Origin: a candidate division WWE3 bacterium
GTDB lineage: Bacteria; Patescibacteriota; WWE3; 2-01-FULL-39-13
NCBI GenBank assembly: GCA_943354835.1
Contig: CALRDH010000003.1
Coordinates: forward strand, 104,496-168,495
DNA length: 64,000 nucleotides
Reading direction: 5' to 3'
The translations under genes were made by a program, and so were the position numbers. Shown here in pieces: positions 13,019-64,000 of the stretch; within the stretch, counting starts at the first letter, position 1; every line of letters starts with the position of its first letter. The notes below the pieces were generated by a model that saw nothing but the letters and a program-made list of their open reading frames with translations, was not told where the DNA came from and made no database searches.

Positions 13019-13663
13019 GTGGGAACTGTGATGAATCAAAGATTTTTAAATACCGAAGGAATAATATTAAAACGAATAAATTATAAGGATGCAGACAAGA
13101 TCTTAACAATATATACAAAAGATGCAGGCAAAATTTCAGCAATTGCAAAAGGGATCAGAAAAATAAATTCAAAAAGGAAAAGCCATTTGGAACTCTTAAA
13201 TCATGTGAAAATGCATTTAATTAAAAGTGGCAATATGTACATAGTCGCGCAAACAGAAGTGATTTCAACGAACCCAATGATTCGTGGCGATCTAGAAAAA
13301 ACAACTCTCGCTTACTACATAACAGAAATATTCGAAAAAATAATTGTAGATGAAGATCAAAACGACATTCTATTTAATTTCCTTAAAAAAACATTAAAAA
13401 TCTTAAATGAGTCATCTGACATTACATTTGTGAATGGATTTAATTTGAAATTACTTAAGCTAACTGGTTTTTATAGTAAAGACAAAATTAAAACTTTCCC
13501 AAATGAAATCAAAGAATACTTTAAACAATTAGAAATAATGAAATATGAAGACGTTTTGAATATAAAGCCAGACTATATGCTCGCAAAAACATCGCATGAA
13601 ATACTAAAATCTCTAACAGAAGAGATCTTAGAAAAATCACTCAAAGTAAAGCTTTTTATCTGA
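13019..13663 (+). CDS. recO: DNA repair protein RecO
   Basis: GIILKRINYKDADKILTIYTKDAGKISAIAKGIRK is the RecO N-terminal OB-fold signature. The true start may be the ATG at ~13031 (MNQRF). Confidence 0.7.
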   Translation: MGTVMNQRFLNTEGIILKRINYKDADKILTIYTKDAGKISAIAKGIRKINSKRKSHLELLNHVKMHLIKSGNMYIVAQTEVISTNPMIRGDLEKTTLAYYITEIFEKIIVDEDQNDILFNFLKKTLKILNESSDITFVNGFNLKLLKLTGFYSKDKIKTFPNEIKEYFKQLEIMKYEDVLNIKPDYMLAKTSHEILKSLTEEILEKSLKVKLFI

Positions 13664-15634
13664 ATTCAAAAGTATCTTCTGGCTTACTCCATTTACGCCA
13701 ATCGTATAATCGTCAATGCTTGTTCCAGATTGTCTTTGAATTAAAACATTATAGTTGTCCATATTCACAGACTCTGGTAATTCATATGTGTACGTTATTG
13801 TTAAATCAGTTTCCTTTAACTGTCTTGTAAATGATTCAAAGAATGTTTTTTCAAGTTCCATATCAGCATATTCAGCTCCATTTGTTTCTTGGCCGTCAGA
13901 TGCTGTTATAGAAATCATCTTTGACCCGAGCGGAACATAGACTCTTAAATATGCATTATAGAAACAGCATGGATCGATATTGTACCAATCTGGTCTTTTT
14001 GGATTATGAACTGTTACCTCAACAGTTCCAATCTTTTTACCATCAACAATACTTACGTCCTTTTTAACTGATTGAGTTACAAAACCTTCCTTTGACCAAT
14101 CAGCCTTACCTGCTCCAAAATTACTTCTATTAACATGAAGATAGTCAAAACCTACTGGCGTTTTATCTACCTCGCCAGAGTATCCTAAGTTTTCAAAAGC
14201 TGTCTGTACCGGTACATCAAACGAATAAAGCAGAACATCTTTTTTACTTAATGAATCAAGCATTACTTTCGTTATATTCAAAAGATTTGTAGCCTCTGAT
14301 GTAAAAACTTTTTCAAGCATAGATTGACCAAGGAACTTAATAATCTCTTTGCGGCCAATCGTTTGTGCAAGCTTTCCACCTGCAATATTTTCGAGCTCAT
14401 TTATAACGTTCTCAGAATTAAATTCTGTGAAAGGAACCGTTATATAAGTGCCACTATCAGTTTTAATCGAATACTTTTCAGTATTAACGGCTCCTACAAC
14501 TCTTAACATATCAACAACGACATCGTTATTTATTTGAATAACTCCATCTATTTTTTGTGGAAGACTTCTATCCTTTCTCCAAAAACCTGTTAACAAATTA
14601 TCGGCAGCCTTTGGAAAATCAGGACTTATACTTGTCGCATCTCTTGCGTATAACCTATAAGTATTGCCTTTTAAATACAAATAATTCTGCAAGAAGTAAG
14701 GAACATTTCGATTAACGAGAAATGACGAACCTGTTCGATCACCTTCATCTATAAAATAGGTGTCGATTGAATATGTAATTTGAGGAATACCTTTGTTAAA
14801 TTCAACGGCTACTATGTATGTGTTGAATCCGCCTGACATTCGAAGCTCATAGTTATTTGCCATCAATATCAAATATTTTTTAGGTTCATTCAAACCCATA
14901 AATTGGGGGAATGCGTTAAACATTGCTTCAAATTGAGGTGCTTTATCAGAGACATCCTTTGTAACAGCCTGCAATGTAGAAATTTGAGATCTTAAATCTG
15001 TATTTGGATCAATACCAAAGTACTTAACAAAAAATGGAAGCGATTTTGGATATCTTGAAACATCAATTTGAGCTAATTCATCATTAATTTTTCCGATTTT
15101 TTCTGAAATTTCAGTTACCTTTGGTGAAAATTGAGGCATAAGGCTCATTAGCTTTACAACTCTTTCTTGTGCTGGAACGCTTTCCGGAACTACACCATTT
15201 GTTGAAAAACCAAGATCAGCTGCATATGGTTCTAATATTGTTACGGCAAGTTCACCAAGTTCAATACCTTGAGTAACTGTTGTTAATAAATGTTGACTAT
15301 CTTGATAATAAATTTCTGTATTTGGAAATTTTCTTATCAAAGACATATTGTCTTCGTAGACAGTTTCAAACTTAGTAACTCCTTTTTTAGTAATTTCAAG
15401 GCCTTCTTTTACTTCAGTAAAATTTAATTCACGAAGTCCAGTTGTAATTTGCGTTGCACTATTTTTTAAAACCTTTGCCTCATTAGCTATTGCTAAAACC
15501 GGTCTTATTAAAAGAAAGTAAACAATTACAAAAACAATAACAAAGAAAATAAGAATCCCGAGAATTATCTTTAAGAACAACTTGCCGTTAAAGGGAATCT
15601 TTGGTAGGGAAAATCTTTTTGGAAATTCAGGCAT
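13637..15634 (-). CDS. Membrane-anchored protein with a large extracytoplasmic domain (hypothetical); last gene of the minus-strand glycan operon
   Basis: 665 aa, with a single N-terminal TM (KIILGILIFFVIVFVIVYFLLI) and the rest predicted outside. No motif I can name confidently. Confidence 0.55.
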   Translation of the reverse strand: MPEFPKRFSLPKIPFNGKLFLKIILGILIFFVIVFVIVYFLLIRPVLAIANEAKVLKNSATQITTGLRELNFTEVKEGLEITKKGVTKFETVYEDNMSLIRKFPNTEIYYQDSQHLLTTVTQGIELGELAVTILEPYAADLGFSTNGVVPESVPAQERVVKLMSLMPQFSPKVTEISEKIGKINDELAQIDVSRYPKSLPFFVKYFGIDPNTDLRSQISTLQAVTKDVSDKAPQFEAMFNAFPQFMGLNEPKKYLILMANNYELRMSGGFNTYIVAVEFNKGIPQITYSIDTYFIDEGDRTGSSFLVNRNVPYFLQNYLYLKGNTYRLYARDATSISPDFPKAADNLLTGFWRKDRSLPQKIDGVIQINNDVVVDMLRVVGAVNTEKYSIKTDSGTYITVPFTEFNSENVINELENIAGGKLAQTIGRKEIIKFLGQSMLEKVFTSEATNLLNITKVMLDSLSKKDVLLYSFDVPVQTAFENLGYSGEVDKTPVGFDYLHVNRSNFGAGKADWSKEGFVTQSVKKDVSIVDGKKIGTVEVTVHNPKRPDWYNIDPCCFYNAYLRVYVPLGSKMISITASDGQETNGAEYADMELEKTFFESFTRQLKETDLTITYTYELPESVNMDNYNVLIQRQSGTSIDDYTIGVNGVSQKILLNSDKKLYFE

Positions 15635-15664
15635 AAAAAAAGAATATCATATCAACTATGTAAT

Positions 15665-16291
15665 TCAATACGCTCCTTCACCCTTTAATACTGCGAAAGG
15701 CGTCTTTAATAATATCACAATATCAAGCAAAATCGATTTCTTTTTCGCATAACTACATTCCAAATCAATTCTTTGATCAAAATTAATATTTGATCTTCCA
15801 CTAACTTGCCAAAGCCCAGTTATACCGGGCTTTACAGTAATCATGATATTTAACTTCTTTTCATTTTCTTTATTTCGACCTTTATATTCATCAAATTCGT
15901 CTGGTCTTAAAGCACGTGGACCAATAAAACTCATGTCGGAAAGAAGAACGTTAAAAACTTGGGGAAATTCATCTATAGAATATTTTCTGATGAATTTCCC
16001 GATTGGAGTTACCCTTGGGTCATCCTCAACTTTGTTATTCCCACTTCTCATCTTCTTGTACAATTCCTTGTTTTTAAAAAGAATGTCATCAGCATTTACA
16101 ACCATTGATCTAAATTTCCAAAACTCAAATAATTTACCGTTTAAACCGACTCTTTTGTGATGATAAAAAGGGAAATTCCCATCATATGCCCAAACAGCAA
16201 TCGCTGTAAACACAAAAACTGGTGAAAAAACAATCAAAAATATTGTAGCTAAAACTAAATCTATAGTGCGGTTTACTAGTTTTGATATCAT
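15665..16291 (-). CDS. Polyprenyl-phosphate hexose-1-phosphate transferase (monotopic priming phosphoglycosyltransferase, WbaP/PglC/EpsL family)
   Basis: 208 aa. Bacterial sugar-transferase hallmarks: a reentrant N-terminal helix, KFRSM, and DEFPQ...SFIGPRA motifs. Confidence 0.85.
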   Translation of the reverse strand: MISKLVNRTIDLVLATIFLIVFSPVFVFTAIAVWAYDGNFPFYHHKRVGLNGKLFEFWKFRSMVVNADDILFKNKELYKKMRSGNNKVEDDPRVTPIGKFIRKYSIDEFPQVFNVLLSDMSFIGPRALRPDEFDEYKGRNKENEKKLNIMITVKPGITGLWQVSGRSNINFDQRIDLECSYAKKKSILLDIVILLKTPFAVLKGEGAY

Positions 16292-16301
16292 ATTAATTCG
16301 A

Positions 16302-17459
16302 CTATTTTACAGACTCTTTGTAAGCTTGCAACGTCTGCTCTGCCATTTTTTTCCAAGAGAATCGTCTAACATTTTCATTTCCTTTTTTAATCAAGTCAGA
16401 TCTTAAATTTTCGTCAGTCAAGATTCTAGAAAGACATTCAGTTATTTCAATAACACTTTCAGGATTAAAATATAATACTGAATCTTTAAAAATTTCCTTA
16501 TGTGTTGATATATCTGATAGAACAACGGGGATAGAAAAAGCCTGCGCTTCAAGTGGAGTAATACTAAAACCTTCACTTAACGATGGAAATACATATGCTG
16601 CGGCATTTTTATATAAAATGGCTAAATCCTCTTCTTTAACATATTCGTTTTCAGAATACCTTGCAGGGAATATAACTTTGCCGTCTAACTTTAGTGCATG
16701 GGCAAAACCCGCAAGTCTTTGTGAAAAATTGTCTATCTTTCCTGCAATAACAAGATGTAAATTAGTCGCCGACTTTTCTAGAAAATCACGATAAGCAATC
16801 AAAAGTATATTCAAATTTTTATGAACGTATGAACTTCCAACATACAAAATATATTTGTTTGTGATTTTCATTTCTTCAAGTCTTACTGCAGAACTTTTTG
16901 AATCTGCTGGAGATAATTTTAATAGAGAATCATCAACGCCTTCATATGTAACAATTATTTTTTTCGAATCAAGACCACCATAAAAACTTAGGATATCGTT
17001 TTTAACAGTTTCTGAAGGAACAATAATCTTTACTGCTCTTCTTGTTGCAAAAATAGTTACCAATTTATATGCAATGTTTTTAAAAAAATATGATGGAGCA
17101 GGAAGTGTTGTAGCTTTTTTGCCGGAAAATTTATGCATGATTAAATCATGAATTGTTACTATCATTTTTCGATGGTACAAAATTGGAATATTAAAATGAG
17201 GAACGTGCAAAAGATCAAGTCTTGCCTGTATTAAATCACGCAGAAATAATGTTTGCTCTTCTGAAGAATATACTTTGTAATCTGAAATCCATTTTTTAAA
17301 TCTTGGATTTGCAGGCTTATACAGTTTGCTGCCGGCCCCGGTTACAAAAATTATATAGTCGTTTTCAACATCGATTTGTTCAAGCTCTTTGATTAAGTTG
17401 CGTATATACCGGCCGGGGCCGGCAGCCTCATAAAGTCTTGCGTCAATTCCTATTAGCAT
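16302..17459 (-). CDS. Glycosyltransferase family 4 (GT-B)
   Basis: 385 aa. The C-terminal SLSEGFSITPLEAQAFSIPVVLSDISTHKE is the GT4 EX7E region. Confidence 0.8.
   Translation of the reverse strand: MLIGIDARLYEAAGPGRYIRNLIKELEQIDVENDYIIFVTGAGSKLYKPANPRFKKWISDYKVYSSEEQTLFLRDLIQARLDLLHVPHFNIPILYHRKMIVTIHDLIMHKFSGKKATTLPAPSYFFKNIAYKLVTIFATRRAVKIIVPSETVKNDILSFYGGLDSKKIIVTYEGVDDSLLKLSPADSKSSAVRLEEMKITNKYILYVGSSYVHKNLNILLIAYRDFLEKSATNLHLVIAGKIDNFSQRLAGFAHALKLDGKVIFPARYSENEYVKEEDLAILYKNAAAYVFPSLSEGFSITPLEAQAFSIPVVLSDISTHKEIFKDSVLYFNPESVIEITECLSRILTDENLRSDLIKKGNENVRRFSWKKMAEQTLQAYKESVK
17328..17426. repeat. Perfect 14-bp GC-rich inverted repeat (GCTGCCGGCCCCGG ... CCGGGGCCGGCAGC) with a ~71-nt spacer inside the 5' coding region of the GT4 gene
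   Basis: Arm 1 at ~17328-17341 and arm 2 at ~17413-17426. Both lie in the first ~130 nt of the minus-strand GT4 ORF and encode FVTGAGS and EAAGPGR. Confidence 0.5.
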
Positions 17460-18330
17460 TTCTTATTTTTCCTAAAATTTCTATACCAAATAAAACAATG
17501 GATGTAACAAAACTTGGATATACATTTTTATAATGTTTCTCATAAAAAAGCTTCATTGCGCGAGTTGTTTCACTACTCATTTTAACTTTTGTTTCTTTTG
17601 AAGCAGTTGTAATATCTGTACTTTCTTTTCTTGTCCCAACACTTGCACCTTTATAATGAATTGCTTCAAACATTGGCAAATACATTATTTTATATCCAAC
17701 CTTTTTAACCCTAAAACAAAAATCAACATCTTCACCATATACAAAATAATCTTCGTCCCAAAGGCCAGTATATTCAAAAACAGATCTTCTAACCATCATA
17801 AAATGAGAAATACATAAATCAATTTCGTGAGGTTTTGTAAGATCTTTATCGCCTAAAAAATAGCTGTTAAATATTTTTGACTTTGGAAAAAGCTTTCCAA
17901 GTCCACTAAAATGAGAAATAGCGGTCCATGGCGTTGGAAAACCACGATGAGCATCTAAATCAATCTCTCCGTTTCTTAAAATAAGTTTACATGTTGCAAT
18001 TCCAATACTTTGATCATCCGCTAAAACACTGACCATACCATCTAATGTGCGCTCTTTTGGAAATGCATCGGATCCTAAAAACAAAACATAATTCCCTGCC
18101 GAATTTTTTAAGCCCACGTTATAGCCTTTTGCTAAACCGACATTTTCACCAGCAATAAGTTTAATACTTGGAAACTCCTGTTTAACCATTTCCGCCGAAT
18201 TGTCGCTTGATCCATTGTCAACAACAACAACCTCATAATCAAGATGAACACTTAAACTTTGTATGTTTTTAATGCAATCTCTAAGGATATCTTTAGTATT
18301 AAAATTTACGATGATGATGGACAAATCCAT
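17443..18330 (-). CDS. Glycosyltransferase family 2 (GT-A)
   Basis: MDLSIIIVNFNTKDIL...VVVVDNGSSD and ...YGEDVDFCFR are GT2 motifs. Confidence 0.85.
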   Translation of the reverse strand: MDLSIIIVNFNTKDILRDCIKNIQSLSVHLDYEVVVVDNGSSDNSAEMVKQEFPSIKLIAGENVGLAKGYNVGLKNSAGNYVLFLGSDAFPKERTLDGMVSVLADDQSIGIATCKLILRNGEIDLDAHRGFPTPWTAISHFSGLGKLFPKSKIFNSYFLGDKDLTKPHEIDLCISHFMMVRRSVFEYTGLWDEDYFVYGEDVDFCFRVKKVGYKIMYLPMFEAIHYKGASVGTRKESTDITTASKETKVKMSSETTRAMKLFYEKHYKNVYPSFVTSIVLFGIEILGKIRNANRN

Positions 18331-18346
18331 ATTAAAAATTAGTATA

Positions 18347-19343
18347 TCACCTAGGTTTGAGTATAGAGAAAATCTCCCGCATTAATTTTTTGCTGTCATG
18401 CCTTAACAAACTTCTTTTGACACGGTCACCTTTTATTGGATTTACTTCAACAGCTTTTAATAAGTCAGCGCGCATGACTCTGTTATCTTCTGCCAAATCG
18501 TCTAAAACCGCATATGACTTTTCTAGTTCATATTTTTGGAGTGAACTTTTTGGAAGTTTTTTATTGTTCATTAATATATAGTCAATTTTTCGACCTATAT
18601 ATTTTTCAATCTCGTAAACATAATCAGACGCTTTAAATCCATGCGTTTGTCCCCACTTCGAAACTATATTAGGTATAAATATAATTTTTGGCGTGCGATT
18701 TTTTGATGGCATCACTTACTCCATCAACAACAATATTGGCGAGTAAACTTGTATATAAATCTCCGGGACCCATAATTATATAGTCGGCTTCACTTATCGC
18801 CTCTTTAGATTTATCAAATATCTTTGCTTTTGGTTGTACCCAAAGTCGTGAAATTCGCATAGTCCCATCGTGTGAAGATTCAGGTTCATCAATCATAGAT
18901 TCGCCGAATGCAACGGACCCATTTTCATATTGCGCAATCAATTGGATATCATCAAAGGTTATAGGGAAAACTCTTCCTTGAATATTTAGAATTCTTGAAG
19001 CTTTTCTAAATGCTTCTTCTTCACTTCCTAATATTTCAGTTAAAGCTGTAATAAGTAAATTTCCAAAATTATGTCCTTCTAAACCAGGACCTCCTTTTGA
19101 AAATCTGTATTCAAAAAGTCTACGCAAAATGTTATTGCCATTACCATCTTCAGAAAGCGCAACCAAACATTGCCTAAAATCTCCGACAGGAAGTTTTCCA
19201 AATTCATCGCGCAAAACGCCAGTACTTCCACCGCTATCGGCAGACGACACAATCGCAGTTATATCAATATTTTCGATATGTTTTATGGCAGAAAGTACTG
19301 TATAAGTTCCAGTGCCTCCGCCGATTACAACTATTCGTTTCAT
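18347..19343 (-). pseudogene. YvcK/CofD-like (UPF0052, gluconeogenesis-factor family) gene split by a +1/-1 frameshift in a poly-A run
   Basis: ORF 18669..19388 (…MKRIVVIGGGTGTYTVLSA…GPGDLYTSLLANIVVDGVSDAIKKSHAKNYIYT*) and ORF 18347..18715 (MMPSKNRTPKIIFIPNIVSKWGQTHGFKASDYV…) are the N- and C-terminal parts of one YvcK-like protein in different frames. They overlap at ~18669-18715, where the coding strand reads GCCAAAAATTATATTT. The start is probably the MKRIVV Met at ~19343. Confidence 0.6.
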
Positions 19344-53560: not shown

Positions 53561-53564
53561 CAAT

Positions 53565-54791: not shown

Positions 54792-57700
54792 TCTACTAGT
54801 AAATTTATATGCAAAGGAAAAATTAAAAAGAATAGCTGATTCTAAATTATTTTATCTAATTTCTCTAGGCTTATTAGGTTTAACACCACTATTTTGGTTT
54901 TATAAGGACTTTATTATTCGCCCTGAAGAACTTAGCTACATAAACTATTCATTTTTATTTGAAAAATATCTATATGCTTGGTCTACTCATACATCAAATG
55001 GATTACCAACTACTTACTCAAATCAACTAATACTTTTTCCAGTTGGTTTGTTGTATGCATTTTTCGAAAAAATACAAATCTCGGAGCAACTTGCGCAAAA
55101 GATAATCCTTGTATTTTTCTACGAATCAACACTGATTTCTTCATACTTACTTTTTTTGAAACTATCAAAAAGTAACAAGTCTTCATTTTTGTCATCTATC
55201 TTTTATTCATTTAATTTCTATACTCTTTCCATCCCTTTTTATACAGCAAAGATGATACAGATGGCTATATTCCCAATAATTTTTCAAACTACATTAAATT
55301 ATATGGAAACAAAAAGGATTAAATATATCTTTCTTAATTTTATAACTCTATTTATATTTCAAGGTATCTTTTCCAACATCGCTAATGCCACATCTACAAT
55401 GATAGCTTACCTATTGGCAATTTCTTATTATCTTTATATAACTCGACCAAAAAGCAATCCGATAAAACATATTAAACACTTAACGACGTATTTCCTGGCA
55501 ATACTTCCAATATTTGTAAACATTGGTTTAATCTTCTATTACTCCGTATTGAATACTAATCTGTACATAAAATTAAGAGAAACAAACGGATTCGCACATA
55601 CCTTTCTATCAACATCAATTGCAAAAATATTCATAATATTTCATGGAGCATGGTGGGAAGACTCTGAAGTGTACAATACATTATTCACGCATTTTAACAA
55701 TCCCTTCGTAATTATTTCGTCGGTTGGACTTTTCGCATTTCTTGTCTTTGGATTCCTAACTATAGATAAAAAGAAGCAAAATAGAAAATCTTACGTTTTT
55801 TGGTTTTTCTTTTTCTGTATTTTCATATTTTTTGTAAAAGGAATAAATCAACCTTTTGGCACAGTATATAAATTGATGTTCTTTACTGTCCCTGGATTTT
55901 TTGTTTTCCGCGAACCATGGGCAAAATTCACTCCATTACTAATTTTTTCAGGGAGTATAGTTTTTCTCTACGTTTTCGAATCGATTTCAAAATATAGATA
56001 TTTGCCAAAACTTATATTCATAATGATTTTACTAATCGCTTTACCATTTCTGACTGGAAATGCTATAGATCATTCTGGATCTGGATATTCAGACACCGAT
56101 ATCTTAATTCCTAGTTACTGGAAGGACTTTCATGAATGGTCAAAAAACAAGGAAATTCAAAACCTTAATATTTTCGCAACGCCAGTAATATACGGAACCC
56201 AAGAATATTATAATTGGCAAGGTTATGAAAAGGGAAATTTAACAGGGTCATTCGTATACACTTATCTTTATAGCAATTCAATTAACAAACTAGATGATCC
56301 AACTGGCATACACTACGAGTATCTAAAAACATACAGCCCAAATTTATTTCAAATATTCAACGTCGATTATGTTTTAAGTCAAAATGATGTTGTTAACGTT
56401 GCCGCGAACAAGGACTATTCGATTAAAAATCTTTCGAATGAAAATATTATAGAAAAAGAACCATTTCTGAAATTTGGCAAATTAGCATTATACAATCTAC
56501 AACCAAAATATAAATCTCAAAGGATATACATACCACAAAATGTATACAAATATAGTAGTAACGATGAAGCAATATTTCCAACGATATTAAATATATTTCC
56601 AGAAGAAACATCACACGCATATATTTCAATACATGAAAAGGATAACTCTTACGATATAATATCTAATTCCGCAGTCACTGTAGCAAATAAAGTCAATTCG
56701 AATATACAGACGTTAGGGCAATGGGATAACGGATGGACCTGGCCTATAGAAGCAAGCGTGTCCCCAAAATCCACGAAATATAAACTAGTAAGATTCTCTG
56801 AATATATAGAACAAAAAACAACTCAAAATCAGCTAGATAAAATTGACCTTGACCTTTGGTATGCAGGAAAACGGATTGAGGAAATCCAGAGATTTGATTT
56901 AAATTCACTTGAAAAAAAGGACCTGCTTGAAGACTTCACAAAGAAAATATCATACATATCAGAAACTTTACGAAACTTTCCAAAAAACCATCAAGACGAG
57001 AAATACTGGGGAACTGTAAAAAAATCTCAAATGTATATTAAAAGGTTTATACAAACAGGAACTTTAGCGAAAACCATATATCTGGAGAAAAATCTTAACG
57101 AGTTAAATTCTTTTCAGTCATGGATAAATGAAAAAGTAAACCCGTATTGTAAAAAGCAATGTTACGAAATCAAAGCGACAGAGACAGGAACTCACCAAAT
57201 TTTTATCAAAAATTCAGAACTAAGAAAGATTTGGCCGAACAAAGATGAACTAAATAATTACCATGACGGAATTATTACCTTAATAGTAAAAGCAAATGAA
57301 TTTAATTCAATCTCTCCACAAATACTATCGGTTGAACCTTTATATATTGAAGATATAAATTCTCCAATAAAAATTGGGCAAGTAAATTTGCAAAAAGATG
57401 AAATATACTACATCGATCTTTCATTTTTAGATGATATAAACATCGTAAATAAGGGGTTATGGCAGACGCCAGATATTAATAAACAATCAGACTATGAAAT
57501 TGAATTTACACCTCTATCAGTTGTAAACGGATATACATCTGAAGACGGCGAGGAGGTAAGAATATGGAACAATACAATAAAATTCAAAGAACTTTCCGGA
57601 TGGGTGCCAAATACCCCATATAAGCTATCATTCAAATACAAAATCAATGATGGCAGACTTGGAATTTTAATCTCGGAAAGCATATACGATATATCGAACA

Positions 57701-58728
57701 TATCAGAAGGAAAAATTGGCAATAACTTTGAGAAAATAGATAATTCATCCTTAGTACAAAAAACCGCACTGAAAGAGTTAATCGATGCAAAATGCAATTA
57801 CGATTTAGATAATGAAAACTGCTGGATTAAATATGAAAAGACTATTAATCCAAATAGTTTATCAGTTGGGGCATCGATATATTTCTATGCAACTCCTGAT
57901 TCTAATAACTTCTCGAAAGTTTTGGTTAGCGAGATAAAGATAGAACCGATAACGGACCTAAAACCAATTCTCGTGCTAAATAAAGATGTAAATACGAGTA
58001 TCACTAGACCAGACATAAAATATAATATGATAAATCCAACTAAATATTCTATAGAAATCCGAAATGCAGTATCACCATATATTATTGTGTTTAGTCAAAC
58101 TTTTCATAAAGGTTGGAAACTTTATCTTAACAATCAAGAAATTGGCAAAACACAACATGAAATTGCAAACGGATTTGCAAACGCTTGGCAAATAAGCCCA
58201 GGCGAAGTAGGAAACCAAAGTAATTACACATTAACACTAGAGTATTATCCTCAAAGAATACTTTACTATACATGGTACGCGACAATATTAGTATTTATAG
58301 CATCAATCCTTTATGTATTATTTGAAATTTTATTAAATAAAAATTATTCTTTAACAGAATCAAATCAAAAAGCACCATCTTCACAAAAACCCCAACTACT
58401 TGGATTATTAACAAAAAGGGTAAAGAAACTTAAAAAACCAATCTTTATTGGGGGCATCATAACTATATTGTTTTATGAATTAAGTAGCTTGCAAACAATA
58501 TCCGATTTTGTAATTTTCCTAATAATAATATTTGCAATAATAGTTATAAAATTAGCTAAGATTAGTAGTAAAAATTTAATCTATACATCACTTTCACTTA
58601 TCATAATTATGATAATTTTAATATTATTTAAGAATGATACCTATTCTGAAATCTTTGCTATTTTCGCACTGACCTTAATTGCGGTAACCTCATTTATAGA
58701 ATTTACTAGAAAGAATATTGATGACTGA
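54778..58728 (+). CDS. Giant (1316 aa) polytopic membrane protein: N-terminal ~430-aa multi-TM GT-C-like domain, ~750-aa extracytoplasmic domain, C-terminal TM bundle (AftD/DUF3367-like architecture)
   Basis: Hydrophobicity layout read from the translation: about 12 N-terminal TM helices, a long soluble middle, and about 4-5 C-terminal TM helices (…YYTWYATILVFIASILYVLF…, …IFLIIIFAIIVI…, …LIIIMIILILF…). Confidence 0.5.
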   Translation: MRILNLLVNLYAKEKLKRIADSKLFYLISLGLLGLTPLFWFYKDFIIRPEELSYINYSFLFEKYLYAWSTHTSNGLPTTYSNQLILFPVGLLYAFFEKIQISEQLAQKIILVFFYESTLISSYLLFLKLSKSNKSSFLSSIFYSFNFYTLSIPFYTAKMIQMAIFPIIFQTTLNYMETKRIKYIFLNFITLFIFQGIFSNIANATSTMIAYLLAISYYLYITRPKSNPIKHIKHLTTYFLAILPIFVNIGLIFYYSVLNTNLYIKLRETNGFAHTFLSTSIAKIFIIFHGAWWEDSEVYNTLFTHFNNPFVIISSVGLFAFLVFGFLTIDKKKQNRKSYVFWFFFFCIFIFFVKGINQPFGTVYKLMFFTVPGFFVFREPWAKFTPLLIFSGSIVFLYVFESISKYRYLPKLIFIMILLIALPFLTGNAIDHSGSGYSDTDILIPSYWKDFHEWSKNKEIQNLNIFATPVIYGTQEYYNWQGYEKGNLTGSFVYTYLYSNSINKLDDPTGIHYEYLKTYSPNLFQIFNVDYVLSQNDVVNVAANKDYSIKNLSNENIIEKEPFLKFGKLALYNLQPKYKSQRIYIPQNVYKYSSNDEAIFPTILNIFPEETSHAYISIHEKDNSYDIISNSAVTVANKVNSNIQTLGQWDNGWTWPIEASVSPKSTKYKLVRFSEYIEQKTTQNQLDKIDLDLWYAGKRIEEIQRFDLNSLEKKDLLEDFTKKISYISETLRNFPKNHQDEKYWGTVKKSQMYIKRFIQTGTLAKTIYLEKNLNELNSFQSWINEKVNPYCKKQCYEIKATETGTHQIFIKNSELRKIWPNKDELNNYHDGIITLIVKANEFNSISPQILSVEPLYIEDINSPIKIGQVNLQKDEIYYIDLSFLDDINIVNKGLWQTPDINKQSDYEIEFTPLSVVNGYTSEDGEEVRIWNNTIKFKELSGWVPNTPYKLSFKYKINDGRLGILISESIYDISNISEGKIGNNFEKIDNSSLVQKTALKELIDAKCNYDLDNENCWIKYEKTINPNSLSVGASIYFYATPDSNNFSKVLVSEIKIEPITDLKPILVLNKDVNTSITRPDIKYNMINPTKYSIEIRNAVSPYIIVFSQTFHKGWKLYLNNQEIGKTQHEIANGFANAWQISPGEVGNQSNYTLTLEYYPQRILYYTWYATILVFIASILYVLFEILLNKNYSLTESNQKAPSSQKPQLLGLLTKRVKKLKKPIFIGGIITILFYELSSLQTISDFVIFLIIIFAIIVIKLAKISSKNLIYTSLSLIIIMIILILFKNDTYSEIFAIFALTLIAVTSFIEFTRKNIDD

Positions 58729-60487
58729 TTTATTGATATACTCAAATTTCTTTGGTGATAACATCGGAAATATTATTAATGTTTCAAATGCAAACACACA
58801 TGTAGCGATTAATATTATTTTACTTTTTGTGGTATTACTAATTATCTTTTATTATCGCAAATTGCAAATTCTTAAAAAGAACTATCTAATTGGATTATCT
58901 CTTGTTTCGATTCTAATTCTCTCCCCTCTTCGCATTCGTTATTCTATGGAATGGCCGAATCATGCTAATTGGGCTTGGATTATTTTTTATTTTGCTTCCT
59001 TGTTGCCTTTCTTGAAAAATCCTGTTTCTTGCAAGTTTAGATATCCACTTTTGGCTGGAGCTTTCTTTTTTGTGGCATTAATAGAAAATGCATATCATGG
59101 AGTTGAGCTACTATTTATGTCAATTCCTATATTTCTTTTTTCGATTTATTTTCACAGCGCAGAGATATTCAAAAAAGAAGATCTACATAAAGTCTTAAAA
59201 AGATTTCTAGTATTTAGCATTATTGTTCTTTCCGCAATTTATTACCAATACTATCTATTTAGTAAACCAATTCAATATGGAAATAATGCTTTAACAACAG
59301 TCATCTCCTCTGCCACCCGCTCCCCTTCTGACCGCTTTGCTTTTTCTGCAAGACCATGGAATTATTTGATTCCGGATATTGATCATCCTGTTTTGGGTGA
59401 TTTAGCCGTACGTGCAAATTATTGGATCTGGCAACACCCTCCTTATTATTTAACTGAACCGTTTTTCCCGAAGGAACATACTTTATTTTTGGGCTATACA
59501 CTTATGGCTTTATCAATTTATACAATTTGGCAAACTTTTGTTAAAAAAAATATTACAGGAGACCAAAAATTTAATGTCACCTTCTTTTTGATTATTGCCG
59601 TTTCTGCTTTTATTTTCAGCATGCCACCATACATTGCCATAAATAATTTTAAAATCTACTTCCCTTCTCACTTTATATACGACTTCTTGCCTCAATTTAG
59701 AGCATACGCAAGATATGGCGTTTTCGTATTTATAGGAAATATAGTAATCGCAATGATCGGATTAAACTATTTGATTTCTAAATCATTCTTAAACAAACCA
59801 AAACAAAAACTTAAACAAAATTTGCTGATAATCGCGATCTCCGCACTCGCAATTTTTGAATTTATACCCGGAAAACATTTAATCTCTATCAAGCCAACTC
59901 CACCATACGAATGGCTTCGTGAACAAGGCACCATGCAACAAACACCAATTAAATATATAGAAATCCCGGAAAGGGCCGATTACACCGACCATCTATATAC
60001 ATACGATGCAAATATAGAAATAATAAACCCATACCTTGTAACAAGAGGCGATGCAAAACTTTTGGAAGACATAATATTAAAGCGTGAAAATTCTCAAGAA
60101 CAATTATTCTGCACTCTTTCTAACAAACTTGATGTCAAATACCTCTTCTATCACGAAAAGGAGTTAAATAGACAAAAGTATGTTAAAGAATTCATGGAAA
60201 CTGGAGTCGTTACACCTCAATTAAAAGTCGCCATGGCGGAAAGTTGGGGTTCACCAGTATTTGGAAATCATGTGCCTAAAACTGACGAAGATCTGGCAAA
60301 AGAACAAATTACTAAAAATATGAAAAACTTTTTATTAAACGATCCTAAACTAACTTTAATAAAAGAATATACAAATGATGAAATAATTCAAAGTAGACCA
60401 AACAAGAACTTCTCTGCTGATAAATTTGATGCCGTTACAATATTTGAAATCAATAGAGACTACTGCAGCTCACTTATTAACCCTTAA
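58718..60487 (+). CDS. Polytopic membrane protein (about 10 TM) with a ~200-aa C-terminal soluble domain; GT-C-like/polymerase candidate
   Basis: 589 aa with multiple TM helices through ~370 aa, then a hydrophilic tail. Overlaps the preceding gene by 11 nt. Confidence 0.4.
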   Translation: MMTDLLIYSNFFGDNIGNIINVSNANTHVAINIILLFVVLLIIFYYRKLQILKKNYLIGLSLVSILILSPLRIRYSMEWPNHANWAWIIFYFASLLPFLKNPVSCKFRYPLLAGAFFFVALIENAYHGVELLFMSIPIFLFSIYFHSAEIFKKEDLHKVLKRFLVFSIIVLSAIYYQYYLFSKPIQYGNNALTTVISSATRSPSDRFAFSARPWNYLIPDIDHPVLGDLAVRANYWIWQHPPYYLTEPFFPKEHTLFLGYTLMALSIYTIWQTFVKKNITGDQKFNVTFFLIIAVSAFIFSMPPYIAINNFKIYFPSHFIYDFLPQFRAYARYGVFVFIGNIVIAMIGLNYLISKSFLNKPKQKLKQNLLIIAISALAIFEFIPGKHLISIKPTPPYEWLREQGTMQQTPIKYIEIPERADYTDHLYTYDANIEIINPYLVTRGDAKLLEDIILKRENSQEQLFCTLSNKLDVKYLFYHEKELNRQKYVKEFMETGVVTPQLKVAMAESWGSPVFGNHVPKTDEDLAKEQITKNMKNFLLNDPKLTLIKEYTNDEIIQSRPNKNFSADKFDAVTIFEINRDYCSSLINP

Positions 60488-62577
60488 TCAAAAACCGACA
60501 TCATGTATTCGCCACTTATTAAGAAGTTTTTGCCGTGTTGGTAGCTTGGGCCGACTAAGGTTACCTTTTCAACCAGATTTTTCTTGCCTAGAATAATCAT
60601 CTTTGGAGCATTCATGATAAGCGTATCTCTGTCATTAAAAACATTAACATTACATGTTCTTAAGAAATACTCGCCATCTTTCTTCTCAAAAACATCGCAA
60701 TAAAAACCGACTAAAGGCAGATCAACACTTGAATCGATCCAAACTGAAGCATTTTCAAATAGCATACGATTTGAAGCAAGTTCTGAAAGGAATGCTAAAT
60801 CATAATTATGTGAATTGCTTTTATGATACAAATTTGCCGAAATTAAAGCCGAAGAAAAAGAAGCAACAAGAACTATAAAATAAACCAAAGCATTATTTAT
60901 TCCAACCTTAAATTTAATAAACTTAACGACAAAAGATAATATTACTAAAACAACAAAACACACAAACCATTTTGTTGAAATATAGACTCCGGGAACAAAT
61001 ACATTTATTAAATTTAAAACAATTGCGGTCGAAATTAAGGTCCTTTGACTTGTATTAAACTTCTTAAAAATTCCAAATAATAATATAGTGCTTCCAAAAT
61101 AAAATATTAATGAAAAAATTCTTCCCGTGAATGAAAAATTTCCAAAAATATATCTAAACAAATCAAATAGTACATAATTTTTTTCTGAATAAATTATTAA
61201 CATTTCATCATATGTAACGGGAGACATCATATAGAAAAGCGGTAATAAAAATGACAATCCAATAAACGAATAAATTAAAAAAGAATAAAACGAAGATAAA
61301 CTAAATGACGGCAGTTTTAAATCAATATTTTTGAAGTGATACGTTACATAAGCACATGCGATCACGACATAAATCCAAAAGAATTCAGATTTATAGGAAT
61401 ACATAACTCCGCCTACTAAAAATGAAATTATACCTGCAAAAAAACCAATTGAAATAAGATTCGGGGTCTTTGCCGAAACCGATCTATATAACATATAGAG
61501 AAGCAAAGCCCAAAACAAAATAAAACAAATTAATGAAAAAACACCGGTTTCGGCAAAGACCTCAAGCCATAAATTGTGAAGTGGCAATTTGTAACTTAAG
61601 GCCGCTTTATCTATATAGTAATATGCGTTTGCCCACTTTGATGTATGAAAGTAAGCATGAAATGAATTCGTTCCTATTCCAAACAAAAAGTTTTCAAGTC
61701 CAACATTAATTCCAACTTTCATCAAAAACAGATGTGAGAAAAATGAAACTGATCGATATAAAAACGACTGCCTAATTACATCCTGAAATAGATACAAAGT
61801 AACCAAAGGTAAAGTAACAAAAGCCGTTGCGATTCCAATCCAAGAAAAGGTTCCAATTTTAAATTTAATTTTTCTATAAATTCCTACATATATTGCCAAA
61901 AAAGATACGAGTCCAAACCCAAATCCTATGGTTGCACTTCTTGAGCTTGTAAAATAAAGTGAAATTAAAATTAAAACAATCAAAATAGAATCAATATATT
62001 TTTCTGCTTTCTTTTTACCAGATAATAAACTCGAAAGAACTACAAAAAATAAAGACGATAAATATGCTGCAAAATGATTTACATCCCAAAACACAGAACC
62101 ATATCTGGTTGGATATCCAGGTACAGGCCAAACTCCTCCAGTTGCAATACCTTTTGTTTCTTGCAAATACATTTGATAAATTAAAAACGCAAATACAAAT
62201 AAAAATGTGTATTTATAAATATCTATAAGTTTTTTTATACTTCCCTTCTGCTCATCAATGTAAAATTTAAACGTAGGATATGAAAACACAACGGCAACTT
62301 GAAACGCAATCATTCTAGCTGAATTCATAACATCTTTACTTTGAATTAAACTCAATACTTGAAAAAGTACAATTGTAAAAAGAAACACAAACAGTTTATC
62401 TTTCACTAAGTCCTTATAATTTTTTATAAAATAAAAAACTCCAAATAATGAAACCAAAACCAAAATAAATTTAGAGATTACTAAATCTGGATCAAAAATT
62501 GAAAACATTTCCTTATGCGTAAAGGGGATTGAGATTACTAACAAATAAATTAAATATTTAGAAATTTTATTTAACAT
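60484..62577 (-). CDS. O-antigen ligase/Wzy_C-like polytopic membrane protein (polymerase or ligase)
   Basis: 697 aa, more than 12 TM helices. ...YFTSSRSATIGFGFGLVSFLAIYV... resembles the Wzy_C/O-antigen-ligase SR(G/S)A motif region. Confidence 0.5.
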   Translation of the reverse strand: MLNKISKYLIYLLVISIPFTHKEMFSIFDPDLVISKFILVLVSLFGVFYFIKNYKDLVKDKLFVFLFTIVLFQVLSLIQSKDVMNSARMIAFQVAVVFSYPTFKFYIDEQKGSIKKLIDIYKYTFLFVFAFLIYQMYLQETKGIATGGVWPVPGYPTRYGSVFWDVNHFAAYLSSLFFVVLSSLLSGKKKAEKYIDSILIVLILISLYFTSSRSATIGFGFGLVSFLAIYVGIYRKIKFKIGTFSWIGIATAFVTLPLVTLYLFQDVIRQSFLYRSVSFFSHLFLMKVGINVGLENFLFGIGTNSFHAYFHTSKWANAYYYIDKAALSYKLPLHNLWLEVFAETGVFSLICFILFWALLLYMLYRSVSAKTPNLISIGFFAGIISFLVGGVMYSYKSEFFWIYVVIACAYVTYHFKNIDLKLPSFSLSSFYSFLIYSFIGLSFLLPLFYMMSPVTYDEMLIIYSEKNYVLFDLFRYIFGNFSFTGRIFSLIFYFGSTILLFGIFKKFNTSQRTLISTAIVLNLINVFVPGVYISTKWFVCFVVLVILSFVVKFIKFKVGINNALVYFIVLVASFSSALISANLYHKSNSHNYDLAFLSELASNRMLFENASVWIDSSVDLPLVGFYCDVFEKKDGEYFLRTCNVNVFNDRDTLIMNAPKMIILGKKNLVEKVTLVGPSYQHGKNFLISGEYMMSVFD

Positions 62578-64000
62578 AAAGAGGATCTTCTATAGGGTCT
62601 GGCGGATACCCATAATTCGTAAGCTTTGACGATACATCAGCGATTTCTACTGTTACCTTATCAAACTCTATCCTTTCTAGAATTGTTAATTTTTCGCCCA
62701 ATATCAACTTATCAATAAATGTCATACGTCTTAACATTAGCGTTTCAAGTTGAGATCTCAATAACTCTACTCTAGAAACTGATTGTAGCAAAACCCAACC
62801 TCCAGACGTACCTTTAATATCTAAAACTAGTGGAGCCTTAATCGTGCCTCCATTATTTTGCAATTTATAATAGACCGAATCTGGAACCAAAAAGCTATAG
62901 TTTTCTAAAGGCCCGGCATCGTCTATCATTCTTAAAATAGTTGGCTCATCAACTGACTTAACAACATGATCGCTATAAAAATGCAACACAGGAGGTTCAA
63001 TTCTACTGAAATATAATTTTCGATCTGGATAGTCTTCAATTGGATAATTCCTATTATTTATATCTACCAATGCAACCTTATCTTTATTAAAATCCGGATA
63101 ATAAACTTTATCTCGGATAATTACTACATAGAAAATGGCAACTAAAGAAGCGCTAAATACCAGTAAAATTCTTAAATATTTATTATCAAACCTTATTTCA
63201 CTTCTTAAAAATGAATTAAGAATATATATAGATCTTTCTATAAAGCGTGCAGATAAAATGGCAATGAATGGATAGATAGGCATTATATACCACTGCAATT
63301 TATCTTTTGAAATTGAGAAGAAAATTAGAACAAAGAAAGTAGAAATCAGAAGAAGATAATACTGCCTTCTATCCTTATCAAAAAATGGAAGCAAAATCAA
63401 AGCACCAAAAAGTGGCAAAATCCAAATTCTAAATGAAGTCCTTATTACATCTAAAAACCACAAAACTGGTCTCTCGTGACCAAAACCCGAAAGTCCACGT
63501 CCAATCATGTGATCAATAAAATATGTATCCCAAAAATCATTTCCATACTTAATTAATGAATAAATGTGCCAAGGTCCAGCTATTAATAAAATCCCAGATC
63601 CCATAATTAAAAATGGTTTTATATAACTCTTAAAATTTTTAATATCTAAAATTAACAAATAAATGAAAATTATTGGCAGTGGTATAAAACCAATAATTCC
63701 CTTTGTCATAACAGCAAAGCCGACAAAAAGTCCTGTTATAAACCATTTCTTTGAATAAAAGAAATAAATTGACAACACTATAAAAAATGTAGCTGTAACA
63801 TCTAACATTCCATTTCGTGAATAGTACAAATAATGAGCGGTTGATAACAAAATTAACGATGCAGTAATACCTGTTAGTTTGTTGTAAAGCTTATTTCCAA
63901 GTTTGTACGTTGCGATAATTCCAAGTAAACCGAAAATTGCTGAAATTATTCTTGCACCAAATGAATTAAATCCTGTAAGTTTAAAAGCCAAAGCAGTTAA
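62567..64000 (-). CDS. ArnT/PMT-family GT-C glycosyltransferase (polyprenol-phosphate sugar-dependent), 5' end beyond the window
   Basis: ...RIISAIFGLLGIIATYKLGNKLYNKLTGITASLILLSTAHYLYYSRNGMLDVTATFFIVLSIYFFY... is the typical ArnT/PMT first-loop region. The frame is open to base 64000 (the track start is a TTG), so the N-terminus is missing. Confidence 0.65.
   Translation of the reverse strand, partial: LTALAFKLTGFNSFGARIISAIFGLLGIIATYKLGNKLYNKLTGITASLILLSTAHYLYYSRNGMLDVTATFFIVLSIYFFYSKKWFITGLFVGFAVMTKGIIGFIPLPIIFIYLLILDIKNFKSYIKPFLIMGSGILLIAGPWHIYSLIKYGNDFWDTYFIDHMIGRGLSGFGHERPVLWFLDVIRTSFRIWILPLFGALILLPFFDKDRRQYYLLLISTFFVLIFFSISKDKLQWYIMPIYPFIAILSARFIERSIYILNSFLRSEIRFDNKYLRILLVFSASLVAIFYVVIIRDKVYYPDFNKDKVALVDINNRNYPIEDYPDRKLYFSRIEPPVLHFYSDHVVKSVDEPTILRMIDDAGPLENYSFLVPDSVYYKLQNNGGTIKAPLVLDIKGTSGGWVLLQSVSRVELLRSQLETLMLRRMTFIDKLILGEKLTILERIEFDKVTVEIADVSSKLTNYGYPPDPIEDPLYVK

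Follow-up and report, generated by a model that had tools for sequence, protein, structure and literature searches.

Extent and gene content of the glycan island

The DNA analysed in this work (the window, 64,000 nucleotides long) is part of contig CALRDH010000003.1 (assembly GCA_943354835.1, positions 104,496 to 168,495) of an uncultured, small-genome bacterium of candidate division WWE3, which belongs to the Patescibacteria or candidate phyla radiation (CPR). From position 13,637 to its right-hand edge, the window is occupied by an island of glycan-related genes, apparently dedicated to an envelope glycan, in which two heterodimeric thiamine diphosphate (ThDP) enzymes, a split transketolase (TK) and an E1 alpha/beta pair, are embedded among genes for deoxysugars.

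Gene families were assigned by Pfam, NCBIfam and PDB searches over the open reading frames (ORFs) of 13,637-64,000. The ORF listing and the profile searches together define 42 genes (43 ORFs, one gene being frameshifted) at a coding density of 98%. Glycan assembly or nucleotide-sugar synthesis accounts for 22 of them. Another 13 are tailoring or accessory genes, encoding five S-adenosylmethionine (SAM) methyltransferases, an AsnB-type amidotransferase, a B12-binding radical SAM enzyme (B12-radical SAM) and a ferredoxin, the two TK subunits, E1 alpha and E1 beta, and a nucleotidyltransferase. The remaining seven, without a clear assignment, encode a DUF4012 protein, a split CofD/YvcK-family protein, a TPR-linked polytopic protein, three proteins of 167, 213 and 281 residues, and a membrane protein of 1316 residues. 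An evident unrelated housekeeping role was found for none of the 42 genes in the profile searches, and chance could hardly account for a run of this length in which no function is clearly unrelated.

An earlier note, made from the sequence alone, had proposed a glycan-related supercluster from 13.6 kb to the window edge in a small, AT-rich genome. Both points are borne out, by the gene census and by a host that belongs to the Patescibacteria, with a uniform GC content of 0.30-0.37 across the island; the Pfam profiles did not assign most of the ORFs to non-glycan functions. The profile and PDB searches also recovered the components that the note had listed, namely a phosphoglycosyl transferase (PGT), a Wzx flippase, a GDP-mannose 4,6-dehydratase (Gmd), a His-variant DegT enzyme, two short-chain dehydrogenases/reductases (SDRs) resembling UDP-glucuronate decarboxylase (UXS), AsnB, five methyltransferases, the B12-radical SAM enzyme with ferredoxin, the split TK and the E1 pair, together with an Fcl-type enzyme just below the equivalog cutoff.

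The left boundary of the island (13,637) is correct, because genes for RecO and an aminoacyl-tRNA synthetase sit immediately upstream; the first 13.6 kb contain ordinary genes, which also include mraZ, rsmH and a penicillin-binding protein gene. The right boundary lies beyond the window. In locus L004, the ORF at the edge (62567) continues for ∼1.6 kb and is followed by a glycosyltransferase (GT) gene of family 4 (GT4) and a further gene. The island extends at least 3.7 kb past the window and thus measures at least 54 kb. Its exact proteins are also encoded on a contig of 443 kb.

Assemblies from Logan (ERR5863117), ENA (ERZ27280224) and NCBI (GCA_943353295.1) are 100% identical to the window over 29,145-41,915 and over 34,695-64,000 and beyond, and gene order is kept in other Patescibacteria at 60-89% protein identity. 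Because independent assemblies are identical and relatives keep the gene order, a chimera is very unlikely, and a chimeric assembly, which the earlier note had named as a possible artefact, was rejected for 29,145-64,000.

A split transketolase and an E1 alpha/beta pair in two operons

The two ThDP enzymes are encoded in separate operons on the forward strand. Operon C (33466-42049) comprises, in order, a methyltransferase, Gmd, the N and C subunits of the transketolase (TK-N and TK-C), SDR1, a second methyltransferase, AsnB and a GT-B transferase (Gtf3_C-like). The soluble part of operon D (46593-54791) comprises a short methyltransferase, a ColD-like enzyme, a Methyltransf_24 sugar O-methyltransferase, E1 alpha, E1 beta, SDR2 and two successive GT4 enzymes. 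In both operons, neighbouring genes overlap or sit a few bases apart.

The transketolase subunits (TK-N, 35342-36205; TK-C, 36202-37134) scored 287 and 207 bits, respectively, against NF004559. Their sum of ∼494 bits, a rough guide owing to the summing of separate proteins, may be set against the canonical cutoff of 488. The motifs DADLSKST and DGxSHQ are canonical in transketolases, as is generally known and as seen in the homologues aligned here; in TK-C their places are taken by IGDIGAYL and LGGTHHSIE. Among loci of at least 5 kb, glycan genes were found near TK-C of this 'HH' type in 18 of 32 cases, versus 2 of 15 for the canonical type (Fisher p = 0.01). The 136 ORFs that flank the transketolase at 36 metagenome loci included 20 SDRs, 8 DegT enzymes, methyltransferases and 3 PGTs, as well as a subset for sugar catabolism, while pentose-phosphate genes were not among the top 25 flanking families of these loci. 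The order Gmd, TK-N, TK-C, SDR, methyltransferase, AsnB and GT is the same in loci L089 and L090, at 71-89% identity. In metagenome locus L094, a 4,6-dehydratase is followed by a His-type DegT enzyme, TK-N, TK-C, an SDR and a GT4, an arrangement that has the syntax of the yersiniose pathway, except that a transketolase replaces YerE. Split transketolases have been proposed, though not shown in vitro, to transfer a hydroxyacetyl group in miharamycin and amipurimycin biosynthesis, with 13 candidates, exclusively from Streptomycetes, named in a review (PMC12247030). In the literature, nothing relevant was found on transketolase in O-antigen clusters or on CPR glycan gene clusters.

E1 alpha (49304-50269) scored 299 bits versus an equivalog cutoff of 394, and E1 beta (50272-51327) scored 321.7 bits versus the cutoff of 321 for the E1-beta subfamily of pyruvate dehydrogenase (PDH). 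No lipoyl, 2-oxoacid_dh or Pyr_redox family was detected among the window ORFs, i.e., no E2 or E3 genes. The E1 component of a canonical PDH or acetoin complex was rejected on the basis of the missing E2/E3 and the E1 alpha score. For the closest homologues in species-representative genomes, the two nearest ORFs to either side were also scanned. The most frequent families among the 140 ORFs obtained in this way from 37 non-CPR genomes accounted for 25 nucleotide-sugar SDRs, 16 DegT enzymes, 11 radical SAM enzymes, 9 methyltransferases and 6 GT2s, and lipoyl, E2 and E3 families were not among the top 25.

Operon D is conserved in relatives at 62-87% identity. In two other Patescibacteria, the SDR that follows E1 beta is fused to the GT4 in a protein of 735 residues (L006, 2969-5176; L009, ∼13000); this fusion ties the SDR and the GT4 to one substrate. 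In L006 and L009, Fcl-like and Methyltransf_24 genes stand directly upstream of E1 alpha, the position held by the ColD-like gene in the window. Stand-alone E1 alpha/beta pairs of the alphaKADH2 type place a pyruvate-derived two-carbon branch on keto-sugars in the paulomycin, avilamycin, everninomicin, aldgamycin, kosinostatin and kibdelomycin pathways, and the kibdelomycin enzyme (KbDH) has been tested in vitro (PMC4802897, PMC10338323, PMC12247030).

The His-type DegT gene adjoins the E1 alpha/beta and B12-radical SAM genes in three unrelated non-CPR genomes (L012, ∼10000-17200; L051, ∼10000-15400; L063, ∼1100-6900), and in L012 and L063 this set is joined by an Fcl-like gene. The recurring set may represent a conserved pathway for a branched, C-methylated deoxysugar.

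Each ThDP pair is followed by a UXS-like SDR. SDR1 (37127-38200, after TK-C) and SDR2 (51334-52419, after E1 beta) are paralogues with 54% identity, whose top PDB match is UDP-glucuronate decarboxylase (hUXS, 9e-38). Both possess the motifs SSGE(I/T)YG and YxESK, and their scores against the NCBIfam UXS and ArnA models are far below the cutoffs. A T-D-E motif is characteristic of 4,6-dehydratases; the S-G-E motif of the two SDRs lacks its Asp, and 4,6-dehydratase activity was rejected for both. A gene for UDP-glucose dehydrogenase was not found in the window. Since Gmd and the ColD-like enzyme are encoded directly upstream of the ThDP pairs and the window has no UDP-glucose dehydrogenase, a 4-keto-(3,)6-deoxyhexose acceptor, according to yersiniose logic, is favoured. 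In everninomicin biosynthesis, a UXS-like SDR supplies a 4-keto-pentose acceptor (PMC10338323).

Predicted GDP-sugar pathway and other tailoring enzymes

The genes for GDP-linked sugars are distributed over the middle part of the island. Gmd (34230-35327, forward strand) was matched by PF16363 at 1e-149. The DegT enzyme of operon D (47267-48481, forward) has ColD (2gms, 2.6e-62) as its best PDB match, with a His-His pair that aligns with His188-His189 of ColD, and is for these reasons considered a pyridoxamine phosphate-dependent 3-dehydratase rather than an aminotransferase. The gene at 31054-32031 (forward) encodes a GDP-L-fucose synthase (Fcl) or a related GDP-colitose synthase (ColC), with 470 bits versus the cutoff of 500 for NCBIfam NF047922. 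By their families, the ColD-like 3-dehydratase, Gmd and Fcl would make GDP-linked 6-deoxy and 3,6-dideoxy sugars.

Two genes on the reverse strand separate Fcl from operon C, one for an RfaE-domain-II-like nucleotidyltransferase (32033-32527; NCBIfam TIGR02199, 82 bits, below cutoff) and one for the protein of 281 residues (32546-33391), for which Pfam, NCBIfam and PDB gave no match. This gene pair is kept in L089. Homologues of the nucleotidyltransferase also occur in other phyla, within 10 kb of E1 alpha/beta genes (L011, L016, L017, L019, L021, L023, L038, L047, L052 and L055) and of split-transketolase genes (L118 and L122). Genes for PfkB kinases and SIS-domain proteins, families of the heptose pathway, are likewise found among the flanking families of the ThDP modules, which may point to heptose-derived nucleotide sugars as the substrates of some of these modules.

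Further decoration is suggested by the AsnB-type amidotransferase (39145-40941, forward; Pfam and NCBIfam) and by the five SAM methyltransferases, identified by profile matches, whose genes start at 33466, 38139, 42070, 46593 and 48468; the third of these (42070-42831) is on the reverse strand. Upstream of these genes, on the forward strand, lie a single-cluster ferredoxin (Pfam Fer4_15), whose true ORF spans 24460-24708, and the B12-radical SAM enzyme (24712-26364), with Pfam Radical_SAM and B12-binding domains and an HpnJ-like model as its top NCBIfam match (164 bits, below cutoff). From its domains, the latter is probably a C-methylase or another radical tailoring enzyme. It is followed by the membrane protein of 167 residues (26354-26857, forward), which has ∼3 transmembrane (TM) helices and no family match in Pfam or NCBIfam.

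Priming, flipping and glycosyltransferases in the left part

The left edge of the island is formed by a reverse-strand gene (13637-15634) for a DUF4012 envelope protein of 665 residues (Pfam PF13196, 1.1e-14), with one N-terminal TM helix. Continuing on the same strand, a small PglC-like priming PGT (15665-16291) matches Pfam Bac_transf over its full length (1.7e-58), and is followed by two cytoplasmic glycosyltransferases, a GT4 (16302-17459; Glycos_transf_1, 1.2e-28) and a GT2 (17443-18330; Glycos_transf_2, 1.8e-23). The adjacent CofD/YvcK-family gene (18347-19388, reverse) is divided into two overlapping ORFs, which cover positions 1-210 and 207-281 of the Pfam CofD profile. The frameshift lies at a run of five A's near 18685, within GCCAAAAATTAT, where four or seven A's would keep the frame. 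The split could be genuine, marking a pseudogene, or could stem from strain variation or from faulty assembly, and it is uncertain whether this gene is part of the glycan system.

The Wzx-type flippase (19373-20644, forward) was recognized by Pfam Polysacc_synt_3 and Polysacc_synt and has ∼12 TM helices. Next to it, on the reverse strand, is the gene (20618-22450) for a polytopic protein of 610 residues, whose C-terminal TPR repeats matched TPR families at 1e-24. Its N-terminal domain has at least 7 TM helices and gave no significant match in Pfam or PDB. A SDDIGSILNNPNL loop was spotted by eye only. The protein is a possible TMTC/PMT-like glycosyltransferase of the GT-C fold. Two forward GT2 genes complete this part of the island, the first at 22492-23331 (Glycos_transf_2, 1e-21) and the second, with 2 TM helices, at 23291-24394 (Glycos_transf_2, 5.4e-13).

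Large membrane proteins, GT-C enzymes and their partners

The GT-A and GT-B transferases of the island amount to ten, including 30297-31043 with its weak match to Dol-P-Man synthase, and are somewhat fewer than the dozen or so counted in the earlier note. Of the six or more huge GT-C-like proteins claimed there, four are supported (named, as in the following, by the first coordinate of their genes: 27895, 42828, 58718 and 62567). A Wzy_C domain was found in two, 60484 and the N-terminal part of the 62567 protein, which lies beyond the window, and 20618 and 54778 have no significant match. The matches to the GT-C fold hold at the superfamily level only.

One group of forward genes consists of a GT2 (26880-27911; Pfam, 1.4e-23), an AftB-like GT-C of 797 residues (27895-30288; NCBIfam NF041481, 3e-29; PDB 9dlf, AftB, 1.5e-23) and a GT2 with a weak similarity to Dol-P-Man synthase (30297-31043; PDB 5mlz, 2e-7). 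By its families, this trio looks like a decoration module dependent on polyprenyl-phosphate sugars. A second group includes, on the reverse strand, the C-terminal region of a YfhO/PgfM-like GT-C (42828-44303; Pfam YfhO, 1.3e-13, C-terminal part only; NCBIfam PgfM1, 4.5e-11) and its partner with 213 residues and 4 TM helices (44549-45190), a gene pair that is kept in L009. It is followed on the forward strand by a GT2 fused to a GtrA-like TM domain (45287-46504; Pfam Glycos_transf_2 and GtrA_DPMS_TM), probably a polyprenyl-phosphate sugar synthase of the GtrB/CsbB type.

The non-coding gap between the 213-residue protein and the YfhO-like gene (44304-44548, 245 bp) is the longest in the island. 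It has no Rfam match, and Rfam and tRNA scans gave no match. Two independent short-read assemblies (L002 and L003) both end at ∼41913-41915, immediately ahead of the convergent block of methyltransferase and YfhO-like genes (42-45 kb), and the Logan contig crosses this break point. The shared break at ∼41.9 kb suggests strain-level variation in the 42-45 kb segment.

The membrane proteins of the right-hand core begin with 54778 (54778-58728, forward), a polytopic protein of 1316 residues with ∼8 N-terminal and 4 C-terminal TM helices and a large middle domain that weakly matches DUF5667. Three homologues were found, and homologues hold the same position in L007, L169 and L170; the structure model of the N-terminal domain, from an alignment of 4 sequences, is poor (pLDDT 46.6). 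The following gene (58718-60487, forward) encodes a protein of 589 residues from a rare family without a Pfam model, whose predicted fold supports its assignment as a GT-C glycosyltransferase. Profile-profile comparison of this family with the N-terminal domains of 20618 and 27895 was uninformative (probabilities of 18% and 6.5%). Lenient Pfam and NCBIfam searches with 54778, 58718, 26354, 44549 and 32546 detected nothing significant.

On the reverse strand, 60484 (60484-62577; 697 residues, ∼14 TM helices; Pfam Wzy_C, 3e-13) may be a polymerase, a ligase or an O-oligosaccharyltransferase-like enzyme, the Wzy_C domain being common to all three. The last gene of the window (62567-64000, reverse) contains the C-terminal part of a fusion between Wzy_C and PMT/PMT_2 (Pfam PMT_2, 1.8e-15), which comprises 1012 residues in the full gene from L004.

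Related loci in other Patescibacteria

In L169, a 945 kb contig, the right-hand core consists of a large TM protein and a GT-C that is 41% identical to 58718, followed on the opposite strand by a Wzy_C protein, a Wzy_C+PMT fusion, three GT4 genes and a PMT_2 gene. Upstream of the core the genes differ and encode GT2s, a GT11 fucosyltransferase and methyltransferases. Locus L170 encodes a DegT enzyme, a GT, a B12-radical SAM enzyme, an SDR, AsnB, a GT and a GT4, then the homologue of 54778 and two more large proteins; a gene for UDP-glucose dehydrogenase is found nearby. The pattern in the Patescibacteria is thus a conserved core of four large membrane proteins and GT4 genes, surrounded by variable tailoring genes, comparable to that of O-antigen and capsule loci, and the presence of loci with this architecture in other members shows that the island is not a singular case but a usual feature of the clade. 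Genes for AbiEii toxin-domain proteins and a gene for a DUF6922 protein are situated inside the L170 glycan locus (17685-19574), beside the homologues of the large membrane proteins.

Genes upstream of the island

Between the cell-division genes and the island, the segment 5664-11018 (reverse) encodes a secreted protein of 1220 residues with Big_13 and fn3 domains, followed by genes with KilA-N and Bro-N domains. Its GC content is 0.40-0.44, versus ∼0.33 elsewhere, and it may be the remnant of a mobile element or prophage carrying a surface protein. A reverse-strand ORF of 395 residues (1024-2211) matches EPSP_synthase/MurA over residues 6-82 only (profile positions 214-294), the remainder being without a match, and may represent a MurA-like gene that has been truncated or has diverged strongly.

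Comparison with known systems

The island resembles the Wzx/Wzy loci for O-antigens, capsules and S-layer glycans in its PGT, several cytoplasmic GTs, Wzx, Wzy_C proteins and in-locus nucleotide-sugar genes, and in the combination of conserved assembly genes with variable tailoring genes. Unlike them, it contains no Wzz or polysaccharide co-polymerase (PCP) regulator and no export machinery, and the DUF4012 protein is present instead of Wzz. It also has two Wzy_C proteins (one of them fused to PMT_2), at least four extra GT-C enzymes and 3-5 times the usual size, and its host lacks an outer membrane and lipopolysaccharide (LPS).

The E1 pair is comparable to the alphaKADH2 enzymes AviB1/B2, Plm8/9, KbDH-alpha/beta, EvdU5/S3 and those of aldgamycin and kosinostatin. 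These are likewise E1 alpha and beta subunits without E2/E3 among deoxysugar genes, adjoining an SDR and an enzyme that forms a 4-keto sugar, with an expected transfer of acetyl from pyruvate to the keto-sugar (PMC4802897, PMC10338323, PMC12247030). The known examples, however, belong to secondary-metabolite clusters of actinomycetes and act on dTDP- and UDP-sugars, whereas the island concerns an envelope glycan, GDP-mannose-derived sugars and a CPR host. The likeness is one of family and gene context. Similarly, the split transketolases of miharamycin and amipurimycin are encoded by two genes inside a sugar pathway, with a proposed keto-sugar acceptor (PMC12247030). None of the 13 Streptomycetes candidates has been characterised, while the enzyme of the island is from the Patescibacteria and belongs to a motif-defined clade that occurs in many environmental glycan loci, beside genes for 4,6-dehydratases and His-type 3-dehydratases.

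In LPS and lipooligosaccharides, a YerE-type ThDP enzyme and a reductase act on the product of a His-type 3-dehydratase, an NDP-4-keto-3,6-dideoxyhexose, to yield branched 3,6-dideoxyhexoses (PMC9306805). The yersiniose, erwiniose and caryophyllose systems share with the island a 4,6-dehydratase, a His-type 3-dehydratase, a ThDP carboligase, a reductase, a GT and a surface product (PMC9306805). They differ in that the ThDP enzymes of the island are E1- or transketolase-type heterodimers and its sugars are probably linked to GDP rather than CDP. Membership in the YerE family itself was rejected, as the window has no ORF for a single-chain ThDP enzyme of the decarboxylase/acetolactate synthase family. 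The pathways to GDP-L-colitose and GDP-L-fucose are represented by Gmd, by a ColD homologue in which the diagnostic His has replaced the pyridoxal phosphate-binding Lys, and by a reductase-epimerase of the Fcl/ColC family. ManB and ManC, however, are not encoded in the window, and the ColD-like gene accompanies E1 alpha/beta, not the Fcl-like gene. Counterparts of the GtrA/GtrB/GtrC and CsbB-YfhO systems and of mycobacterial arabinosylation by AftB are seen in the GT2-GtrA fusion, the YfhO-like GT-C and the AftB homologue with its adjoining Dol-P-Man-synthase-like GT2, although the match of the YfhO-like protein to its family model is confined to the C-terminal part of that model, and its partner of 213 residues is encoded separately.

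The enzyme repertoire therefore falls within known logic, each module (Wzx/Wzy assembly, polyprenyl-phosphate sugars with GT-C enzymes, Gmd/ColD/Fcl, and ThDP branching) mapping onto a described scheme, contrary to the earlier suggestion that no single known locus type describes the pathway logic. Every part is of a known kind; their combination in a Patescibacteria host is previously undescribed. The novelty lies in the setting, namely GDP-mannose-derived sugars, a CPR host and a locus for an envelope glycan, in which both heterodimer types occur together.

Proposed pathway and alternative interpretations

The interpretation that we favour, as the probable one, is that the island, at least 54 kb long, directs the biosynthesis of an envelope glycan or glycoconjugate in the Patescibacteria and is organized in three layers. 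From the observed family assignments, operon structure and conservation we infer a sequence of events, a pairing of donors with GT-C enzymes and a chemistry. The PGT and about eight cytoplasmic GT-A/GT-B transferases would build an oligosaccharide on polyprenyl phosphate, which would be flipped by Wzx, and the two Wzy_C proteins, one of them fused to a PMT_2 GT-C, would polymerise it or ligate it to an acceptor. GT2-type polyprenyl-phosphate sugar synthases (45287 and, with weaker support, 30297) would supply single-sugar donors to the extracytoplasmic GT-C enzymes, and decoration would be carried out by 27895 (AftB-like), 42828 with 44549, 58718, and possibly 20618 and 54778. Gmd would form GDP-4-keto-6-deoxymannose, which Fcl would reduce to GDP-L-fucose, and the ColD-like enzyme would remove the C3 hydroxyl; the precursors would include GDP-L-fucose, colitose or both. 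Methyl and amide decorations would be added by the SAM methyltransferases (O- or C-methylation), the AsnB-type amidotransferase and the B12-radical SAM enzyme.

Both heterodimeric ThDP enzymes would add a two-carbon acyl branch to a 4-keto sugar, giving C4-acyl-branched (3,)6-deoxyhexoses. E1 alpha/beta would transfer acetyl from pyruvate and the non-canonical split transketolase would transfer hydroxyacetyl. SDR2 (for E1) and SDR1 (for the transketolase) would reduce the branched product in the manner of YerF, or else supply the 4-keto acceptor, and the next glycosyltransferase in each operon would install the branched sugar. That the ThDP pairs add carbon branches to deoxysugars is probable from their families and context; the branched sugars envisaged in the earlier note as a possibility are now much better grounded, by the neighbourhood censuses, the motifs, the collinear operons in other phyla and the published precedents. 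A more specific proposal is decidedly tentative and on balance unlikely, namely that two different C-branched deoxyhexoses are formed on GDP-mannose-derived 4-keto sugars (acetyl/1-hydroxyethyl by E1 and hydroxyacetyl/dihydroxyethyl by the transketolase) and delivered by the Patescibacteria-specific core of four membrane proteins, including unclassified GT-C families.

Several points weigh against the favoured interpretation. The several strand switches, together with only one PGT and one Wzx, are compatible with one product or with several. A chain-length regulator domain (Wzz/PCP) was not detected by Pfam among the window ORFs, and 20618, 54778 and five smaller genes are without an assignment. 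Judged by the summed score alone, the transketolase halves could have a housekeeping role, and the E1 beta score is barely at the cutoff of its PDH subfamily. An acceptor route through a 4-keto-pentose, produced by a UXS-like decarboxylase as in eurekanate logic, is possible. The neighbourhood censuses were based on mechanically called ORFs, with incomplete tblastn context calls.

Two other interpretations retain the glycan nature of the island. According to one, credible but less likely than the envelope glycan as stated, the island serves mainly protein O-glycosylation (of an S-layer protein, pilins or adhesins), a view that differs in the acceptor only. The Wzy_C proteins would then be O-oligosaccharyltransferases (O-OTases) like PglL or WsaB, and proteins would be the direct acceptors for the PMT_2, TPR-linked and YfhO/PgfM-like GT-C enzymes. 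The two Wzy_C proteins, one fused to PMT/PMT_2, and the lack of a Wzz-type regulator in the window are consistent with this view, as is the top named match of the YfhO-like protein, PgfM1, which belongs to a streptococcal system for adhesin glycosylation. Glycoproteins or a glycosylated S-layer are also suggested by the CPR literature (PMC5220378). Yet the island contains no gene for an acceptor protein (S-layer or pilin), a Wzy_C domain cannot tell polymerase, ligase and O-OTase apart, the matches to the GT-C fold are limited to the superfamily, and AftB-like enzymes have polysaccharides as their substrates. The other interpretation, rather unlikely, is that two or three independent glycan loci lie side by side in a compact genome, for example a Wzx/Wzy polymer locus (13.6-24 kb), a lipid-phosphate-sugar/GT-C set, and a GDP-sugar pathway with its own transferases and the membrane core (33-67 kb). 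At least eight strand switches, the recurrence of the right-hand membrane core and GT4 genes in L169 with quite different upstream genes, the rearranged genes of L009 and the breaks of two short-read assemblies at ∼41.9 kb are in its favour, but a single PGT and a single Wzx are available for the entire stretch, no housekeeping gene intervenes at a coding density of 98%, and blocks B and C are linked in L089 and L091. Of the integrated system claimed in the earlier note, one very large locus for a heavily tailored envelope glycan or glycoconjugate is supported, with sugars predicted to be methylated, amidated, deoxy and probably C-branched; the 42 genes may serve one product or several.

The remaining alternatives concern the ThDP enzymes and the assembly. 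A role of the split transketolase and E1 alpha/beta in central metabolism (the pentose-phosphate pathway, and pyruvate or acetoin dehydrogenase E1), with no branched sugars, could be argued from the two scores close to canonical cutoffs and from the common use of the non-oxidative pentose-phosphate pathway by CPR bacteria (PMC5220378). It is nevertheless improbable in view of the E2/E3 genes absent from the window and from the top 25 neighbour families of the homologues, the low E1 alpha score, a TK-C that lacks the canonical substrate-binding motifs and is of a type associated with glycan genes, the conserved synteny with Gmd, SDR and GT genes, and the SDR-GT4 fusion downstream of E1 beta. 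It is extremely improbable that the locus is chimeric through misassembly or was recently inserted from a foreign source: no supporting point was found, although the independent contigs retrieved cover the island from 29 kb onward and not 13.6-29 kb, and the uniform GC content, the identical Logan, ENA and NCBI assemblies and the gene order kept in other Patescibacteria all oppose it.

Implications for Patescibacteria and for putative sugar-branching enzymes

The envelope of CPR/Patescibacteria is poorly understood. The cells depend on attachment to a host, and published work notes their many glycosyltransferases without a defined pathway. The island offers a testable parts list for a major CPR surface glycan, to which at least 54 kb are devoted; for comparison, the contig of the core-sharing relative L169 measures 945 kb. 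Structural and functional studies could profitably address the rare GT-C family without a Pfam model, as well as the conserved core of four membrane proteins.

Branching enzymes of the E1 alpha/beta and split-transketolase types have so far been described only in antibiotic pathways of actinomycetes, and they appear to be common in the surface-glycan loci of uncultured phyla, which enlarges the pool of candidate biocatalysts for tertiary alcohols. Should the proposal of two branched sugars prove true, sugar branching by a split transketolase would be found for the first time outside the antibiotic clusters of Streptomyces, and both heterodimeric ThDP branching enzymes would be widespread in the surface-glycan loci of uncultured phyla.

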